From NCBI GenBank assembly GCA_048939625.1, contig JBHLPH010000013.1, positions 1-61,414 of the forward strand: a stretch of 61,414 nucleotides of DNA, in the 5' to 3' direction. Shown in pieces: positions 14,117 through 25,817 of this stretch. The notes below the pieces were generated by a model. That model saw only the letters and a program-made list of their open reading frames with translations, ran no database searches and was not told the origin of the DNA. A program made the position numbers and the translations under genes. The first letter of the stretch is position 1, and every line of letters begins with the position of its first letter. Source of the DNA: Promethearchaeota archaeon (GTDB lineage Archaea > Asgardarchaeota > Hermodarchaeia > Hermodarchaeales > Hermodarchaeaceae).

Positions 14117-15103
14117 TCAGATTAACAGTTCTTCCCCTAACTCCAATTTTGCTAGAATTTTATCCACCAATTCACGGGCTAATTGTTTAGTATTTTTAGA
14201 TTCTGTAACAGGTTCATCCTCGATATCCGCAATGAGTTGAGGTAAGCCAGCAAGTTTTCGTATGATACCCGAAATTGCGTGCTTCGCTACTGATACTTCC
14301 GAGCCTCCCGATAAGAGAACAACCAAGTGTCCGGAACACACTTCTTCCGCGGCTTGAAGTAAGATGTCGGTCATCGCTGGAAACGCCCGAAGGGAGAGGT
14401 TAAACCCACCATAATCCAAAGCGTGAGCGTCATGTCCCATATTCCATAGAATCATATTTGGTTGGATTCGACGGGCCCAAGGAATCACCAATCGTCGCAT
14501 CGCTTCAACAAAAGTTTCATCGCTACTATTACTGGGAAAGGGAACATCCACATGGCGCAGGGTTACGGTATCAAAGCTTTCGCGAAAACTAGCTTCGAAA
14601 TTCAGGTGGTATACTCCTTCGTCGTCACCAAGTGTATCCCGTGTGCCATCTCCGGGATGGGGATCAGTATCCACAATGAAAAATCGTTTGACTCCATACT
14701 TCTGTTGGAGCTGTCGAACAAGTAACGCTGAATTATTGTAATAACAAAAGCCCCAGAATGAGTCCCGACTCGCATGATGACCAGCACACCCAGTAAAGGC
14801 AAAGGCGTTCGCCGCCTCTCCGCGCCAAACAGCTTCTCCCGCTCTCACTGCAGCTCCCCCCGAAACTAGGGACGCAGGGTCGTAACCTGATCCTTTCACG
14901 CGTTTGATATGATTTGGTGTATGAACCGATAATAATAGCTCCTCTTTTACTTCAGAGGCTTGTTCTACTTTAACTGAAGAAGACGATAAGGTGCCTGTCT
15001 GCTCAAGGTAATCGAAAGCTGGTTGCACTCGACCAGCCAGAACCGGGTATCCTTCAACCGCCATCAAAGGATGATAAATTACCAGAGTTGGCTTCTTTTT
15101 CAT
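14117..15103 (-). CDS. Histone deacetylase superfamily (Zn-dependent) protein
   Basis: GHHA...GFCYYNN, DTDPHPGDGT and GHDAH motifs; SGGS in place of EGGY. Confidence 0.88.
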   Translation of the reverse strand: MKKKPTLVIYHPLMAVEGYPVLAGRVQPAFDYLEQTGTLSSSSVKVEQASEVKEELLLSVHTPNHIKRVKGSGYDPASLVSGGAAVRAGEAVWRGEAANAFAFTGCAGHHASRDSFWGFCYYNNSALLVRQLQQKYGVKRFFIVDTDPHPGDGTRDTLGDDEGVYHLNFEASFRESFDTVTLRHVDVPFPSNSSDETFVEAMRRLVIPWARRIQPNMILWNMGHDAHALDYGGFNLSLRAFPAMTDILLQAAEEVCSGHLVVLLSGGSEVSVAKHAISGIIRKLAGLPQLIADIEDEPVTESKNTKQLARELVDKILAKLELGEELLI

Positions 15104-15174
15104 CACAGGTCACATCCAAATACAAGGCAACAAAGGATTTAACAGGATATGATGTTCTACTCAACAGCTTCAGG

Positions 15175-16383
15175 ATGGGAAAAATTTTGGAGATTCGAAA
15201 AATCACCAACAAAGAACGAAGTACGCTGATGGATCTATATCGATATGCCTATACCGAATGGACGGATCAGCCAGTGAAAGATGAAGAACTAGACGAAATT
15301 ATTGTCGAGGAGACATTGGGTATATTTGATAATGGACAACTGGTGTCATCTCTTCGCATTCATGATTTTCAGCAATCCATCCGAGGGATCTTGAAAAACT
15401 GCGGAGGTGTTGCTGGAGTGGCTACCTACCCAGAAGCTCGAACGAAGGGGTATGTTCGTCAGTTGATGCGGGCAGGATTCAAGCAGATGCACGAGGATGG
15501 ACAATCTGTCAGTATGCTTGATCCATTCAAACCGAGTTTCTATGAGAAATTTGGATATGTTACCGCAAATGCCCCCTACATAGTAGAAGCACCAATCAAT
15601 CATCTCCAAGCGTCGAACCTCGAATCCTCTTCCTCTGAATGGACCTATGAGCGGCTTCGAGCGGTCGAGGTCCAAGAACCCTTTCTCAAATTTATTCGAG
15701 AGGTGGGTCCTAAGCAATACCACGGCTTTATCATTTTCAGAACGATAACACCCGCGATGTGGAAACAGCGCGTAAAAGACAGTCTGGTCGTCTTCATTCG
15801 ACATAAGGGGAAAATCCAAGCGGTGTGCAGGTATCGAATCAAAGGTGAACGTAGCTCAGGGCGTTGGCAGGCTAATTTAACAGTCATAGATAGTCTCTGG
15901 CGTACCCGCGAAGCACGGAATCACCTCTTCTATTTTCTATCACGACACCAAGATCAAATTGACAATATAATCATTCACGCTCCTTTTGAAACGAAAGTTG
16001 AACACTGGTTCAAGGATATTCGACTCAAGGTAGATCGTAAAACCCCCTGGATGGTTCGAATTGTTGATGTCATCAAAGCTTTCGAAAAACTTCCAGGGGT
16101 AGGTGAAGATATCATTACCATTGAGGTGTCCGATGCTGACTGTCCTTGGAATCACGGAATATTCTCCCTGACATCCGAAAAAGGCTCGCTACATCTCGCT
16201 AAAAGCTCAGGGCACCCCGTTGTAAATGCTTCTATTGAAGCTTTATCCTCTCTAGTGTATGGCACCCAACCACTAGAAGAACTCGAATTTGAGGGTAAAC
16301 TCACAATTACCGAGGAATGGGCTAGACATACCCTGCATCGATGGTTTCCCCCGCTCCCCCTGTATAATGTTGTATACTTTTAA
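15175..16383 (+). CDS. Eis-like GNAT acetyltransferase with C-terminal SCP2 domain
   Basis: VAGVATYPEARTKGYVRQL, FYEKFGY, MVRIVDV and DCPWNHG motifs; aromatic C-terminus. Confidence 0.88.
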   Translation: MGKILEIRKITNKERSTLMDLYRYAYTEWTDQPVKDEELDEIIVEETLGIFDNGQLVSSLRIHDFQQSIRGILKNCGGVAGVATYPEARTKGYVRQLMRAGFKQMHEDGQSVSMLDPFKPSFYEKFGYVTANAPYIVEAPINHLQASNLESSSSEWTYERLRAVEVQEPFLKFIREVGPKQYHGFIIFRTITPAMWKQRVKDSLVVFIRHKGKIQAVCRYRIKGERSSGRWQANLTVIDSLWRTREARNHLFYFLSRHQDQIDNIIIHAPFETKVEHWFKDIRLKVDRKTPWMVRIVDVIKAFEKLPGVGEDIITIEVSDADCPWNHGIFSLTSEKGSLHLAKSSGHPVVNASIEALSSLVYGTQPLEELEFEGKLTITEEWARHTLHRWFPPLPLYNVVYF

Positions 16384-17843: not shown

Positions 17844-19307
17844 CTAGTCAAATTGGAGGGAAGCAGGAACGGGTAATTTGGGGTGGCGTTGGTAGTAGTC
17901 ATGGATAAGTTTCAGGATATCTGCTGCCTCTGCAATATTGGAGAACACCGGAAGATTGGCTTTGCGAAATTGTTCGCGCGTTGCGAGATTTTCGAGTGGA
18001 TAGCCAACAGCAGGAACAGCGACGAAAAAGGGTTTGTGCAATTTCCTCACACAGTATTGTCCCGCATTAATCATCATATCCCAGTACGTTGTTGCCATAT
18101 CCTTAAGTTCCATGTGATTGGCCATGAAGTTTACATAATGAGGTGCGGCTTCAACAATAATGGCGTCGATGTTTTTGTCTTCGGCAACGTAACGAATCGT
18201 TTGGACCGTATTTTCGGGATAGAAGTAGCTAGACGCCATATCTACTGGATTTTTAATATTAGTGCCTACGGCATTGATTACATTCGACAATGCTTGAATT
18301 GTTTCTGAGCTCAATCGAGGAATATCAAACCCATATTGGGCAAGAGAGTCGGTGCCAGCAACTCCAGCTCCTCCACTAATTGCGATTAAAGCGACGCGTT
18401 TTCCTGGAGGTGGTGGGCATCGAATAAAGGTCACAATGGTATTGACGAGGCGTTCAAAGCTGTTAACAGTCACTGCACCCGTTTGATGAAGTAATGCTTC
18501 CCAGATATTTGTAGATCCGGCTAATGCGGCACTGTGGCTGGATACTGCTCGTTTTCCTGCTTCGGTGACTCCAGATTTCCAGACAACAATAGGTTTGTCG
18601 GAGGCGCATTTCGCTATAGCGTTCCGAAGTCGTGGTCCATCACGCACCCCTTCGATATAAATTCCTATGACTTGAGTCTTGGAATCTTGGTGCAGGTACT
18701 CGACGAGTTCCCAGCTGCTAATGTCAGCTTCGTTTCCATAACTGAAGACTTTACTGCATCCGAGTTGAGTTTCAGTGACTGCTAGGTATGCATCGATCGC
18801 TTTGCCACCGGATTGGGAGATAAATCCAACTGGTCCTGGATTAGGTGTTAGATCTGGTCGAAACGAAAAACGGGATTCTGGACATGTTAGGCCCATGCAG
18901 TTCGGACCGAAGGCACGCATGGGACTTGCTTTGATAATCTCTGTGATCTCTTTTTCCCGCTGAGCTCCTTCTTTGGTTCCTAGTTCACTAAATCCACTTG
19001 TGAAGATTGTGACTGCTTTTACGCCTTTAGCGATGCATTCTTTGAGAACTTTCGGAACGAGATGGGCCGGAACCCGGAGAATAGCATAATCAATTGGGTC
19101 TGATATTTCGCTAAGTGTTTTGTAAAATTTGAATCCCAGGGTTTCCTCGACTTTGGGATTCACTGGGTAGATTTTTCCAGGAAAACCATAGTTGAGGAAT
19201 GACTTAAGCCAATAGAATCCGGCAGACGGACTAGTCCCGATGAGGGCAACGGATTTAGAATGGATGAAGTCGTCAAACTGCTGGAAGATCTTTGCGTCCA
19301 TAGGCAT
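17844..19307 (-). CDS. ADP-forming acyl-CoA synthetase alpha subunit (CoA-binding)
   Basis: IYPVNP, FTSGFSE, GPNCMG, ISQSGG, and phospho-His motif SHSAALAG. Confidence 0.88.
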   Translation of the reverse strand: MPMDAKIFQQFDDFIHSKSVALIGTSPSAGFYWLKSFLNYGFPGKIYPVNPKVEETLGFKFYKTLSEISDPIDYAILRVPAHLVPKVLKECIAKGVKAVTIFTSGFSELGTKEGAQREKEITEIIKASPMRAFGPNCMGLTCPESRFSFRPDLTPNPGPVGFISQSGGKAIDAYLAVTETQLGCSKVFSYGNEADISSWELVEYLHQDSKTQVIGIYIEGVRDGPRLRNAIAKCASDKPIVVWKSGVTEAGKRAVSSHSAALAGSTNIWEALLHQTGAVTVNSFERLVNTIVTFIRCPPPPGKRVALIAISGGAGVAGTDSLAQYGFDIPRLSSETIQALSNVINAVGTNIKNPVDMASSYFYPENTVQTIRYVAEDKNIDAIIVEAAPHYVNFMANHMELKDMATTYWDMMINAGQYCVRKLHKPFFVAVPAVGYPLENLATREQFRKANLPVFSNIAEAADILKLIHDYYQRHPKLPVPASLQFD

Positions 19308-19372: not shown

Positions 19373-19876
19373 TCAGGATTCTTTAGAGTCTACGAAGATC
19401 TGGGGAAGCGCCTTTTCAACAGCAAACATCACAGCTACACCAATAGCACAGAGAATACCTGTGCTACTCATTATTGAAATGACCCATAAAGCAAATGGTT
19501 GGGCAAAGAAGATTGTCATCATTGCTGGGATGCCTAGCCCGATAATGAGTGTGGGATATAACCAGGCGAGAAACCAATGTGGACAGGTTTTTCGGTTCGA
19601 CGCTAACAATCCGGCCAACAGGTTCAGTAAGCTTCCAATCACAATATCGATGGGTCCAAAGAAGCTTAACCAATTGGCTAATGCGCCACCAATGAAGAGG
19701 GCTAAAGCCATGGGCCATCCAAGGATGAATGGGAAGGGTAGTAGAATATCTGAAATTCGGAACTGAAAAAGACCATAAGCCAAAGGCTGAATCAACCAGG
19801 TCAGAACCGCATAAACAGCGGACATAATTGCCATCAAGGCTGTGCTTTGAATAATATTCAATCTTGCTTGTCGCAT
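19373..19876 (-). CDS. queT: QueT-family queuosine-precursor (7-deazaguanine) transporter
   Basis: AVYAVLT...PLAYGLFQFRISDIL and ANWLSFFGPIDIVIGS; five TM segments; GGTGA SD before ATG 19876. Confidence 0.8.
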   Translation of the reverse strand: MRQARLNIIQSTALMAIMSAVYAVLTWLIQPLAYGLFQFRISDILLPFPFILGWPMALALFIGGALANWLSFFGPIDIVIGSLLNLLAGLLASNRKTCPHWFLAWLYPTLIIGLGIPAMMTIFFAQPFALWVISIMSSTGILCAIGVAVMFAVEKALPQIFVDSKES

Positions 19877-19881
19877 TTTAG

Positions 19882-19942
19882 TCACCAAGCACCCGGGATT
19901 TATTTAGAGCGGAGCACGGTGCTAGGAACCCACCCGCTCGCA
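19882..19942 (-). promoter_or_regulatory. preQ1-I-riboswitch-like pseudoknot in the queT 5' UTR
   Basis: P1 GAGCGG/CCGCUC, loop containing GUUCCUAGCACC, A-rich tail UAAAUAAA, and P2 AGCACC/GGUGCU adjacent to the SD; TTATAA at 19963-19968. Confidence 0.5.
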
Positions 19943-20087
19943 CATCGCCAAGCTCTTCTACCTTATAATTGCTTTGTCAGTGCAACCCGCATCCGAAAAA
20001 AGAGAGGCGCTTGTGCTTCGAGCCTTGAAACTTGAAGCAAGCTTCTAGTTATAAAAGGAGCTAATACAGAGCAAATCATCTGTAACG

Positions 20088-22022
20088 GTGGGTGGCACGG
20101 TGCCAGTTCAAATTGAAGATGATTTGTTTTTTGAAGAAAAGAATGTCATTCGGAACCCTGACGACAAATGGTTCGCTGAGTATCTCAAGCCTTATTATGT
20201 TCAAACCACTGACGGGCAGTACCTTTTTGGTAGTACACAAGCAGGTCGCCGCCCAGACCGAGCTTTCTATGTGATTCCTAAAGGATATAAGCTGGGTAAA
20301 GGTCAACGCAGCTTTGATCGCAAAATCGGATTGAAACTCTTTGACGTAGTCCTTCGATACCTTAGAACTGCCAAGGTTATTGTACAAGACGGAATCCAAG
20401 GTGAGGCTGGCTACAAGACAGGACTCCGTATCGTTCTTAGTGTCGAGAATCTCCAGACTGCGTATATCACATGGTTTGGCCGATTAATGGTATATCCACC
20501 AGAACCCAATATGAAAATTAACTGCTGGAATTATATTGTTCAAGAACGGCTCCCAGACGCCATCATCAAAGAAATCCAGTCTTTTTGGCCTGACTTCGAT
20601 CCCGATGAACCCTTAACGCTCTATGATCTCACACGTATGGATGCAGATCACCGACGAGTAGTGAGTCTTCGAGTTGATTATTTTGGAGGTGCATACAAGA
20701 AACCTAACCTCACCATGGTGTGGAACCGAGGTGAAGCTGATGGATGTATCTCCTATCATGCAGGATGCACCAAAAACCGAGTTCTTAAAGGACTTTCTGG
20801 CACTGGAAAAACGACACTAACGGTTGGTCCTCAGTTAGAACAAGATGATGCAATACTCGGATTACTCAAACATGATTCCGCTTCCAAAATTCAGGAAGTC
20901 CAGCTAATTGGTCTTGAAGCTGCATCGTATGCCAAGAGTGAAGGATTGGTTCCAGAAAGCCCTGAATGGCCTGGATTAATGAAATCACAAAAGATTCGTC
21001 CTGACGGAACACGCGCCGTAGTTCTTGCCCAAAATATCGATTGTGATGGCATTGAATACCAAATCGAAGAAATTGCTGGCTTTCAGGTAAAGGTTCCTAA
21101 ATCCCTCAAAGGTCAAAGTGTTGGTCACCTGCAACCAACACGCTACGAACAATCAGGAACAACCAATGGTCGGTTTGTCTTTCGCTTCTATGATCTTAAT
21201 CCAGACTGGACCCCTGGATCGCCAAAAACTTTACAGACTGAAATGCTCTCCTTTCGGCGATTTGATGTCTTCCCATTAGTTGTTCGAATTACTGATCCTA
21301 TTATGGCGGTTGCCCTTGATTCTGCCTGTGAGTCTGTAATTACCTCAGCTATTGGAGGAAAAATCCCTGGTACCCGCGTGCGGTCATATGCCGCCACTGA
21401 CTTCATGGCTCGGGAACAAGCCAAACAAGCCCTACTGAAAGTCCGAATGTATACGGACATGGATCTCAGTTTGAACGGAAATCTCGTTTTTGCCATCGTT
21501 AATTCCGGATATGTTGGCGAATTTGACCTATCTGGTAGCCAACGTCCACGGCTGGATGAAAAGAGTCAACCCGTGCCGAAAATCGACCATGCGACTGGAA
21601 AGCCCTACCTCAATGCCCAAGGTAAACCTGTGTACTTAGGCTTAGGCGAAAAAATTCGCGTTCAAGATACTAAACTCCTTGTCCATTTGACTGAAACTCG
21701 AGCTATCAAAAATTGGCTCCCTCATCCGGTGTTTGGTGACTCATATCTCGTTCCTGAACCTGCTGAACTCGAAGAAACTCACGGACTCCACAACTATCGA
21801 CACCGTTTCAACCCCTTAAGATTTTATTCCGCAAATGAATACCTCTCCTTCTGCCAACGAGATATCGACGAACGAACCACCTATCTGCACGACCTCTTTT
21901 CAGGCCAAGAAGGCGCCGAAGACCTTCGCCCAGTTATCGATGTTTGGAAGAAAATCCATCTTCCTGGAGCCCAAATAATCCAAGACTTTTATGATACTCA
22001 TTTCGGACCAGTACCGCAATAG
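20088..22022 (+). CDS. Divergent ATP-type phosphoenolpyruvate carboxykinase-like protein
   Basis: FGGAYKK, YHAG, GLSGTGKTTL, QDD, EAASYAK and TNGR occur in the order of the PEPCK(ATP) motifs. Confidence 0.75.
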   Translation: MGGTVPVQIEDDLFFEEKNVIRNPDDKWFAEYLKPYYVQTTDGQYLFGSTQAGRRPDRAFYVIPKGYKLGKGQRSFDRKIGLKLFDVVLRYLRTAKVIVQDGIQGEAGYKTGLRIVLSVENLQTAYITWFGRLMVYPPEPNMKINCWNYIVQERLPDAIIKEIQSFWPDFDPDEPLTLYDLTRMDADHRRVVSLRVDYFGGAYKKPNLTMVWNRGEADGCISYHAGCTKNRVLKGLSGTGKTTLTVGPQLEQDDAILGLLKHDSASKIQEVQLIGLEAASYAKSEGLVPESPEWPGLMKSQKIRPDGTRAVVLAQNIDCDGIEYQIEEIAGFQVKVPKSLKGQSVGHLQPTRYEQSGTTNGRFVFRFYDLNPDWTPGSPKTLQTEMLSFRRFDVFPLVVRITDPIMAVALDSACESVITSAIGGKIPGTRVRSYAATDFMAREQAKQALLKVRMYTDMDLSLNGNLVFAIVNSGYVGEFDLSGSQRPRLDEKSQPVPKIDHATGKPYLNAQGKPVYLGLGEKIRVQDTKLLVHLTETRAIKNWLPHPVFGDSYLVPEPAELEETHGLHNYRHRFNPLRFYSANEYLSFCQRDIDERTTYLHDLFSGQEGAEDLRPVIDVWKKIHLPGAQIIQDFYDTHFGPVPQ

Positions 22023-24508: not shown

Positions 24509-24617
24509 GGTTATTAGCTCGACTTGCTTCCGCTCTTGCTGCCTTATAGATAATTTTAACATACTACACAATATAAGACACCTCATACCAACAAGTATGT
24601 GAGAATTGGTGATACCC

Positions 24618-25817
24618 ATGGAAATCCGCAAACTCACCAAAGAGGACATGACTCAAGTGGTCAAACTCCACCAATATGCCTACGGGTTCTGGACCGACCA
24701 GGATGTCCGCGACGAAGACTACACACACATGATTCCTGAAAACATCCTCGGGCTCTTCGAAGGAGACACACTCCTCACGGTTCTCACCATTATGCGAACG
24801 CAGCAATCTATCCGTGGCGTCCTCAAGAGTATGGGTGGAATCTCCATGGTGGGGACTTACCCTGAGGCTCGAATGAAAGGGTATGTCCGCACCATCATGC
24901 AAAGCGCCTTCTTGGAAATGAAAGAGACAGGTCTTTCAGTTAGTATGCTTGAGCCATTTCGGGAATCATTCTATTCTCGACTCGGATACGTACCTGCCCA
25001 TGAGAAATTCCGACTGAAAGCCCCCTTTGACGGGCTTCGCATTCCGCCAGATGATGTCATTGGAGAAAGCTGGGTCTTCGAACGCGTTCCTGGCCATGAA
25101 GCAAAGGATACGTATATGACATTCATCCAAGAGTTTGCTCCTAAAGCCTTCCACGGATATGCATTCAATCCAGAAATTCGTGATGAAGAATGGAACCGAC
25201 GGAACAAAAACCGGCTTTTCGTCTTTATCAAGAAAGCAGGGAAAGTCGAAGCTTTGGCTCGATACCAGATCAAAGGCTACATGCACTTTGACGAATCTGG
25301 CGAACTCATTGTCGAAGAAATGTACTGGCGCACCCTCCCTGCGAAGGCTGCCCTCTTTAACTATTTAGGCAAACACCGCGACCAAGTTCAGACTCTCCGA
25401 ATGATAATACCCTATGGGGTCGACTTTCAACACTGGTTTGAAGATCTCAGAGACTGGATTGAACTCAAGGTCTGGCACCCATGGATGGTTCGAGTAGTTG
25501 ATGTCAAAGAAGCCCTCATGGGACTTCCCGTGACTACAGATGGCGAACTGGTCATCACAGTAATTGATCCCCAATGTGGCTGGAATAATGGCAACTATGT
25601 AATCCAAACAACTAATGGTCGATTCACCGTCAAAACTACAAAACGGGCTGCGAAACTCGAATCTTCGATTCACGGATTAAGCGCCCTCGTATATGGAACT
25701 CACTCCATTGAAGCCCTCGAATATGCTGGCTGGATTAAAGGCGTTACCCAGTCAACGCGAGAACTTCTCGGCAGCTGGTTCCCCCAACTTCCTCTTTATA
25801 ATCCTTATAATTACTGA
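24618..25817 (+). CDS. Eis-like GNAT acetyltransferase, second paralogue
   Basis: VGTYPEARMKGYV, FYSRLGY, MVRVVDV and QCGWNNG motifs; collinear with 15175-16383. Confidence 0.88.
   Translation: MEIRKLTKEDMTQVVKLHQYAYGFWTDQDVRDEDYTHMIPENILGLFEGDTLLTVLTIMRTQQSIRGVLKSMGGISMVGTYPEARMKGYVRTIMQSAFLEMKETGLSVSMLEPFRESFYSRLGYVPAHEKFRLKAPFDGLRIPPDDVIGESWVFERVPGHEAKDTYMTFIQEFAPKAFHGYAFNPEIRDEEWNRRNKNRLFVFIKKAGKVEALARYQIKGYMHFDESGELIVEEMYWRTLPAKAALFNYLGKHRDQVQTLRMIIPYGVDFQHWFEDLRDWIELKVWHPWMVRVVDVKEALMGLPVTTDGELVITVIDPQCGWNNGNYVIQTTNGRFTVKTTKRAAKLESSIHGLSALVYGTHSIEALEYAGWIKGVTQSTRELLGSWFPQLPLYNPYNY

Follow-up and report, generated by a model that had tools for sequence, protein, structure and literature searches.

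The window, by which we mean the whole 61,414-nucleotide stretch of DNA analysed, comes from a Hermodarchaeaceae contig of an Asgard archaeon whose nearest relatives are Hermodarchaeia, an Asgard lineage. Its minus strand carries the transporter gene queT, which starts with the ATG at 19876, and the 60 bases upstream of that gene constitute the leader under study. The promoter, the parts of the leader and the gene are given below in the direction of reading.

19963..19968, minus strand: TATA box TTATAA of the queT promoter; TATA-like boxes recur across the family
19934..19939, minus strand: P1 5' strand GAGCGG; GCGG is invariant and the flanking pair covaries (G-C, A-U, C-G, U-A)
19932..19933, minus strand: G-U at the start of L1, invariant in the alignment; may pair with A-Y at the L3 end
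19917..19926, minus strand: anti-SD, or P2 5' strand, CCUAGCACCG; it pairs better with its own partner than with permuted partners
19913..19916, minus strand: L2, UGCU, with invariant G19915 and invariant U19913, the latter at the position of the class I specificity C
19907..19912, minus strand: P1 3' strand CCGCUC, covarying with the 5' strand
19896..19906, minus strand: A-rich L3, its 3' end the near-invariant AAA-Y-CC of the alignment
19885..19895, minus strand: P2 3' strand CGGGUGCUUGG, extending into the Shine-Dalgarno (SD) sequence, as judged by P2 pairing tests
19882..19886, minus strand: SD sequence GGUGA, 5 nt (CUAAA) before the ATG in the window sequence
19373..19876, minus strand: queT, ECF-type S component, 167 aa (PF06177, E 1e-25)

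The elements named in the original prediction (TTATAA, GAGCGG and CCGCUC, GGUGCU, GGUGA and the ATG) were all found on the minus strand where it had placed them. TTATAA (19968-19963) and GAGCGG (19939-19934) are 23 nt apart. In the family as a whole, the first G of GCGG is preceded by a TATA-like box that starts ~30-37 nt before it, and the RNA is therefore expected to begin at P1; the transcript start predicted for the window is at ~19938-19940, the 5' end of P1. The SD sequence of relatives reads GAGGU or GGAGG; no clear 16S 3' end was found for an anti-SD check. Elsewhere in the window, a 644-amino-acid ORF (20088-22022, plus strand) is divergent from queT and has a weak, partial match to PEPCK_ATP (E 4e-8, residues 51-290). 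An Eis-like GNAT/SCP2 acetyltransferase gene (15088-16383, plus strand) adjoins a histone-deacetylase-family gene (14117-15106), and a second gene of this type (24606-25817, minus strand) was recognized by resemblance only. An acyl-CoA ligase-like gene (17844-19307) comes after queT in the Hermodarchaeia loci examined.

Across all copies, the motif has the consensus GCGGGU…G-N-UCCGC…AAAYCCCGG together with an anti-SD:SD helix. From the 5' end, its parts are the first P1 strand (N-GCGG), GU, a variable loop of 9-23 nt with the anti-SD at its end, and G-N-U; the 3' half then consists of the second P1 strand (CCGC-N), an A-rich linker, AAA-Y-CC, CGG and the SD. This is an H-type pseudoknot with a P1, an A-rich L3 and a P2. 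In the window copy, GAGCGG and CCGCUC are separated by a 21-nt loop, and UAAAUAAAUCCCG lies between CCGCUC and GGUGCU (19893-19888), which is followed by a U and then by GGUGA (19886-19882). The pairing of AGCACC (19923-19918) with GGUGCU, as first proposed, holds, and the helix can be extended by two G-C pairs: beyond a single U.U mismatch, G19886-G19885 are available for pairing to C19925-C19926, which takes the loop-tail helix into the SD. The computed energy of the window anti-SD/SD duplex, including this extension, is -13.4 kcal/mol. The nested fold alone has only modest stability (z -2.1 for the 46-nt core and ~0 for longer stretches), so it is conservation and covariation, rather than energy, that carry the case for the element. 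A good many of the invariant bases are not in helices, as is seen in ligand pockets. The invariant GGU could pair with A-Y-C of the tail as a third helix, Y being only C or U opposite G.

When leaders were fetched by QueT protein, the same core was found in 17/17 Hermodarchaeia loci; two distant Asgard families, with a QueT ~30% identical to that of the window, have it in a shortened version. A pattern search matched 30 of 400 Asgard genomes, once each except for one false second match (in G016, rejected because it lies inside an ORF); reversed-pattern controls gave no matches among the same number of Asgard genomes. The source genome (2.3 Mb) contains a single match and its reversed sequence none. 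Taken together, these counts show that the match in the window leader is not due to chance. Each of the 30 Asgard pattern loci lies directly upstream of a QueT-like ORF, one of them truncated by a contig end (L065). A covariance model added one genome, in which AAA reads ACA, bringing the total to 31 Asgard genomes in six families; in a search of 150 genomes with this model, no second real copy was found in any. A weak model match in G144 (L265) was rejected, as P1 is missing and no ORF lies downstream. Invariance among pattern-found copies is partly circular and only the protein-first set is free of this; in that set, 31 of 32 loci from motif-bearing lineages retain the full core. The original prediction would have been refuted by a leader not conserved among orthologues, and this first of its refuting conditions clearly does not hold.

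In metagenomes, 54 matches passed a structure filter blind to gene content, of which 51 precede queT, one queE-queC (L090) and one an ECF-S-like gene; the last passes by chance (L174). None of the 67 matches that failed the filter lies upstream of queT. Metagenome contigs with a named queT belong to TACK archaea, and source names place some copies in Bathyarchaeia and in a marine Nitrososphaerota lineage. Of eight Bathyarchaeia-type loci picked by protein alone, seven carry the motif at 51-77 bits; it is absent before the related queT of the eighth, Bathyarchaeota BA1 (L266). The motif is also absent from 29 other Asgard genomes with a PF06177 match, and families f5, f9, f15, f16 and f19 have queT without it. 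All copies found here are on archaeal or archaeal-looking contigs; viral contigs gave 45 pattern matches, none of which passed the structure filter or preceded queT. Two QueT proteins labelled 'Acidobacteriota' probably reflect misbinning, and the one contig examined has the Bathyarchaeia gene order STT3-GT4-queT-polB.

The order motif-queT-queC was found on eight contigs (L079, L086, L100, L118, L135, L144, L183 and L184), where the possibility arises that CDG or ADG is imported and converted locally to preQ0. Neither a queD nor a queE motif was seen at those eight loci. At L176 (246-983), a copy lies upstream of a 245-amino-acid membrane protein with no Pfam match, a candidate second deazaguanine transporter. 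This protein bears a weak likeness to the ECF S components that come after queT in L167 and L271.

Both the P1 stem and the helix that covers the SD are backed by covariation, the check that the original prediction had proposed for archaeal queT leaders. In P1, 88.5% of alignment cells are paired, and 71 two-sided changes were counted, vs 33 in shuffled alignments and above all slid controls. The pair flanking GCGG/CCGC is standard (G-C, A-U, C-G, U-A or G.U) in 76 of 80 copies. For P2, the anti-SD/SD energy with own partners was -15.9 kcal/mol in 18 dissimilar copies vs -12.8 +/- 0.6 kcal/mol with permuted ones (0/20000 permutations), and -15.5 vs -13.4 kcal/mol in 80 copies, though kin are not independent and relatedness inflates the result of these permutation tests. 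The count of distinct P2 helix sequences is independent of relatedness; anti-SD and SD change together as CCUCC/GGAGG, CUCGCA/UGCGAG, CCUCUU/AAGAGG, CAUCU/AGAUG and UUCCGA/UCGGAA, the window having AGCAC/GUGCU. P2 ranges from 8 to 13 bp across copies. Its CCG/CGG base showed no covariation in any copy and is broken in two (L055 and L099). A small hairpin within L1, which sequesters part of the anti-SD, is predicted for the majority of the copies shown; L150 and L164 have compensatory changes in it, and in the shortest copies (L069 and L138) it is weak or absent. Plausibly, this hairpin is the ON state.

We are therefore all but sure that the motif is a real, conserved RNA element acting at the level of translation. 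A conserved 5'-leader structure with a covarying anti-SD:SD helix, as expected of a translational riboswitch in general, is present, and the motif is probably a new OFF class of this kind for a 7-deazaguanine, most likely preQ0. The mRNA would begin at P1, judging by the position of the TATA box, and P1 would fold first. Without ligand, the anti-SD strand would be loose or held in the small L1 hairpin, leaving the SD free and QueT made. When a 7-deazaguanine (most likely preQ0, the arcTGT substrate) is abundant, it would bind a pocket at the P1/P2 junction comprising the invariant GGU, G-N-U and AAAYCC nucleotides, and would lock the pseudoknot helix P2 over the SD. The importer would thereby be turned off and, in some TACK archaea, queC or queE-queC would be shut off as well. 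Both the existence of two states and small-molecule binding are predictions of this model.

A lock on the SD need not be set by a metabolite. A conserved archaeal RNA-binding protein, such as arcTGT or a preQ0-dependent factor, might bind the leader as a translational operator, and the invariant single-stranded bases would suit a protein site too. arcTGT was present in all 24 motif genomes examined for it, and it may act on RNAs other than tRNA (PMC4770233). However, the small size, the pseudoknot, the A-rich L3 and a regulon confined to one metabolite (importer and synthesis genes) are typical of metabolite riboswitches, and no conserved regulator gene lies beside the motif, whose neighbours vary. 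We consider a protein operator unlikely.

The known riboswitches most like the motif are those of preQ1-I (RF00522, types I-III; T. tengcongensis, B. subtilis, C. antarcticum and E. coli), with which it shares the small H-type pseudoknot, a GC-rich P1, an A-rich L3, a P2 over the SD and a place before queT or que genes, matching the preQ1-I gene context (upstream of queT, yhhQ or queCDEF). Unlike preQ1-I, with a P2 of ~4 bp, the motif has a P2 of at least twice that length and an optional L1 hairpin, and its hosts are archaea in which QueF was not found. The defining features of class I are a C ahead of the P1 3' strand, an L1 that opens with U and an L3 that ends in A (PMC11625349); UC or AC precedes the P1 3' strand, the C being the specificity cytosine (PMC11625349). 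In the motif, that base is U in 31/31 protein-first copies (N-U), L1 opens with G-U-R and not with U or UU atop a G-C floor, and L3 ends in AAA-Y-CC before P2 and not in the conserved A (A29/A30). The original prediction of a preQ1-I-like element with an enlarged loop fares poorly here: the GUUCCUAG stretch on which it leaned is GAUGCUCG, GAUACUCG or GAGUGGACCUCC in relatives and occurs only as GGCCCAUCC in one Asgard, it is partly anti-SD, and the invariant bases are elsewhere. The search with preQ1 models that it had proposed came back empty. Scanning the region (E up to 10), eight homologous loci (E up to 5) and the whole window (at gathering thresholds) against Rfam revealed no preQ1 or other riboswitch family, and RF00522 found no match in five motif genomes, the B. 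subtilis positive control being matched. Given the absence of an Rfam match, the variable GUUCCUAG, the U in place of the specificity C, the G opening L1 and the YCC ending L3, the motif is not, by its sequence, a preQ1-I; it would work like one, as a small pseudoknot over the SD before queT, but falls outside the class.

The motif might still be rescued as a divergent preQ1-I if P1 were one pair shorter and the first C of CCGC, after the U, were the specificity base. That register yields the 'UC' of type I, and the topology, the A-rich L3 and the gene are the same. Yet it opens an invariant G-C pair, its L1 opens with GG and not UU, the invariant G is placed to pair with the very C in question, and the YCC end of L3 and the silence of RF00522 in genomes with the motif are unaccounted for. 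We find this reading improbable.

PreQ1-II (RF01054) and preQ1-III (RF02680) resemble the motif in being found before queT (COG4708/DUF988) and in controlling translation by anti-SD:SD pairing (PMC11625349); indeed, all three known preQ1 classes regulate queT (PMC11625349). These two, however, are HLout pseudoknots of 4-5 helices with a pocket of C-U and U-A-U triples, unlike the motif, which has 2-3 helices in about 45-65 nt and no U-rich tracts. In alignment A1, U tracts are not conserved and helices of the kind expected from an HLout fold with a ten-nucleotide pocket of U-A-U triples are missing, and the Rfam models of both classes gave no match to the motif. The pocket residues of classes I, II and III being missing, there is no structural precedent for how the motif might read a guanine-like base. 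The motif is absent from Rfam 15 and from the literature searched, most subscription papers lying outside its coverage. We suggest that it forms a class distinct from preQ1-I, -II and -III, most likely undescribed.

A constitutive or temperature-dependent structure with no ligand, damping translation or protecting the 5' end, is hard to credit: P2, with its length and stability (mean ~-15 kcal/mol), could form by itself, but such a structure has no need of ~20 invariant bases over two archaeal groups, nor of restriction to one pathway. A T-box-like leader sensing the modification state of tRNA G15, or a tRNA mimic, is more doubtful still. The AAAYCCCGG tail resembles the 3' half of the archaeal T-arm, and tRNA-like stretches occur among the false matches; however, the matching 5' half (GGUUC) is not conserved, no other tRNA-like features were found in the motif, and T-boxes are much larger than this element. 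A transcription-factor operator in the DNA, in which GCGG...CCGC would be an inverted repeat directly after the TATA box, much as other Asgard queT promoters carry a palindromic repeat, is strongly disfavoured and can be practically set aside, as the arms stand at widely differing distances (loop segment 9-23 nt), pairs of the G.U type are tolerated and the loop changes in step with the SD.

The palindromic repeats themselves occur in queT leaders of Asgard families f16 and f19 that have no motif (L275-L279, L281, L285-L287, L290 and L293). In 11 of 12 such leaders, two or three tandem TACGTA palindromes with a 10-bp period stand just before the SD, 10-50 nt upstream of the queT start, one copy being degenerate in L285. 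They are probably a transcription-factor operator and a second mode of queT regulation.

The ligand was approached through gene content. The source genome encodes a single TGT, which is of the archaeal G15 type (arcTGT, over cut-off), and a hydrolase of the Q_salvage family (G000:C45:22003-22527; PF10343, Qng1-like); full-length QueC or QueE was not found in this genome. A PF10343 gene (L266:3692-4675) also lies directly behind the motif-less queT of Bathyarchaeota BA1, and both archaeal proteins are candidate archaeosine/preQ0 nucleotide hydrolases. Full-length QueC was not found in 30 of the 31 motif genomes. The exception, G314, has it with folE2 and a 798-amino-acid TGT-like protein carrying DUF6884 (L345, G314:C46:9000-13146), probably a deazaguanine DNA-modification cluster. 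No QueF-family gene was found in the 31 motif genomes, a result that means only 'not found with PF14489', because none of 14 control genomes provided an archaeal QueF-like positive control and a QueF-like protein may escape the model. ArcS was not found in the same 31 genomes, three of them single-contig; their DUF5591 matches are weak and, where placed, lie inside arcTGT, four motif-less control genomes giving E values below 1e-43. RaSEA was not found in the five motif genomes tested.

The TGT was of the archaeal type in 24/24 motif genomes in which it was examined. Its specificity loop reads GSPT in 22 of these and GTLA in the other two. Four motif-less Asgards that have ArcS and QueC show GSVV or GSVT at this place, and P. 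horikoshii shows GGVV (source genome G000:C28:47500-49161, L237; orthologues L306-L339), a comparison in which controls are few and lineage and gene content are confounded. V197/V198 determine the preQ0 specificity of arcTGT (PMC5699537), and archaeal tRNA receives preQ0, a base that archaea are expected to salvage (PMC5699537, PMC5372724). Lacking detectable ArcS, QueF and mostly QueC while having arcTGT, the motif genomes fit salvage.

Feedback by preQ0 is indicated by the copies that precede queC and queE-queC, since preQ0 is the free product of those enzymes, and for preQ0 as the ligand we judge the chances about evenly balanced. The archaeosine base must be taken seriously but is the less favoured candidate: the absence of ArcS and the arcTGT loop pattern suggest it, and modelled pockets of ArcS-less Crenarchaeota might accept it (PMC5485725), but the base readily decays to preQ0 (PMC5485725). 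On this view, the finished base would be imported by QueT and inserted directly into tRNA by an arcTGT with Pro-Thr (Leu-Ala in two) in its loop. We give a limited chance to the archaeosine base or a different deazaguanine (CDG or ADG, for example), and a smaller one to an archaea-specific class common to Asgard and TACK that responds to the archaeosine base or its nucleoside and not to preQ0. As no QueF-family gene was found in the motif genomes, preQ1 is a very improbable ligand. Of the translational preQ0/preQ1 sensor first proposed, then, the conserved pseudoknot over the SD stands, with a 7-deazaguanine most likely as its ligand, and the preQ1 half is unlikely.

The riboswitches established in archaea are the fluoride and TPP classes only, both of them bacterial (PMC5473149). 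Like the motif, they are cis-regulatory RNAs before transporter genes; unlike the motif, whose copies here all lie on archaeal or archaeal-looking contigs, they are bacterial classes that are sparse in archaea (PMC5473149). The lineages revealed here have arcTGT, and no known enzyme for the last step from preQ0 to archaeosine was found in the 31 genomes; direct insertion of the archaeosine base, if true, would be a salvage route not described so far. The motif occurs almost only before genes for the import or synthesis of preQ0, a tRNA-modification precursor, and it marks archaeal QueT as a likely salvage transporter for the archaeosine pathway. If our preferred reading of a preQ0-type switch is correct, archaea would have a riboswitch class of their own, one that spans Asgard lineages as well as Bathyarchaeia; it would be a fourth way for RNA to bind a 7-deazaguanine, and probably the first tuned to preQ0.
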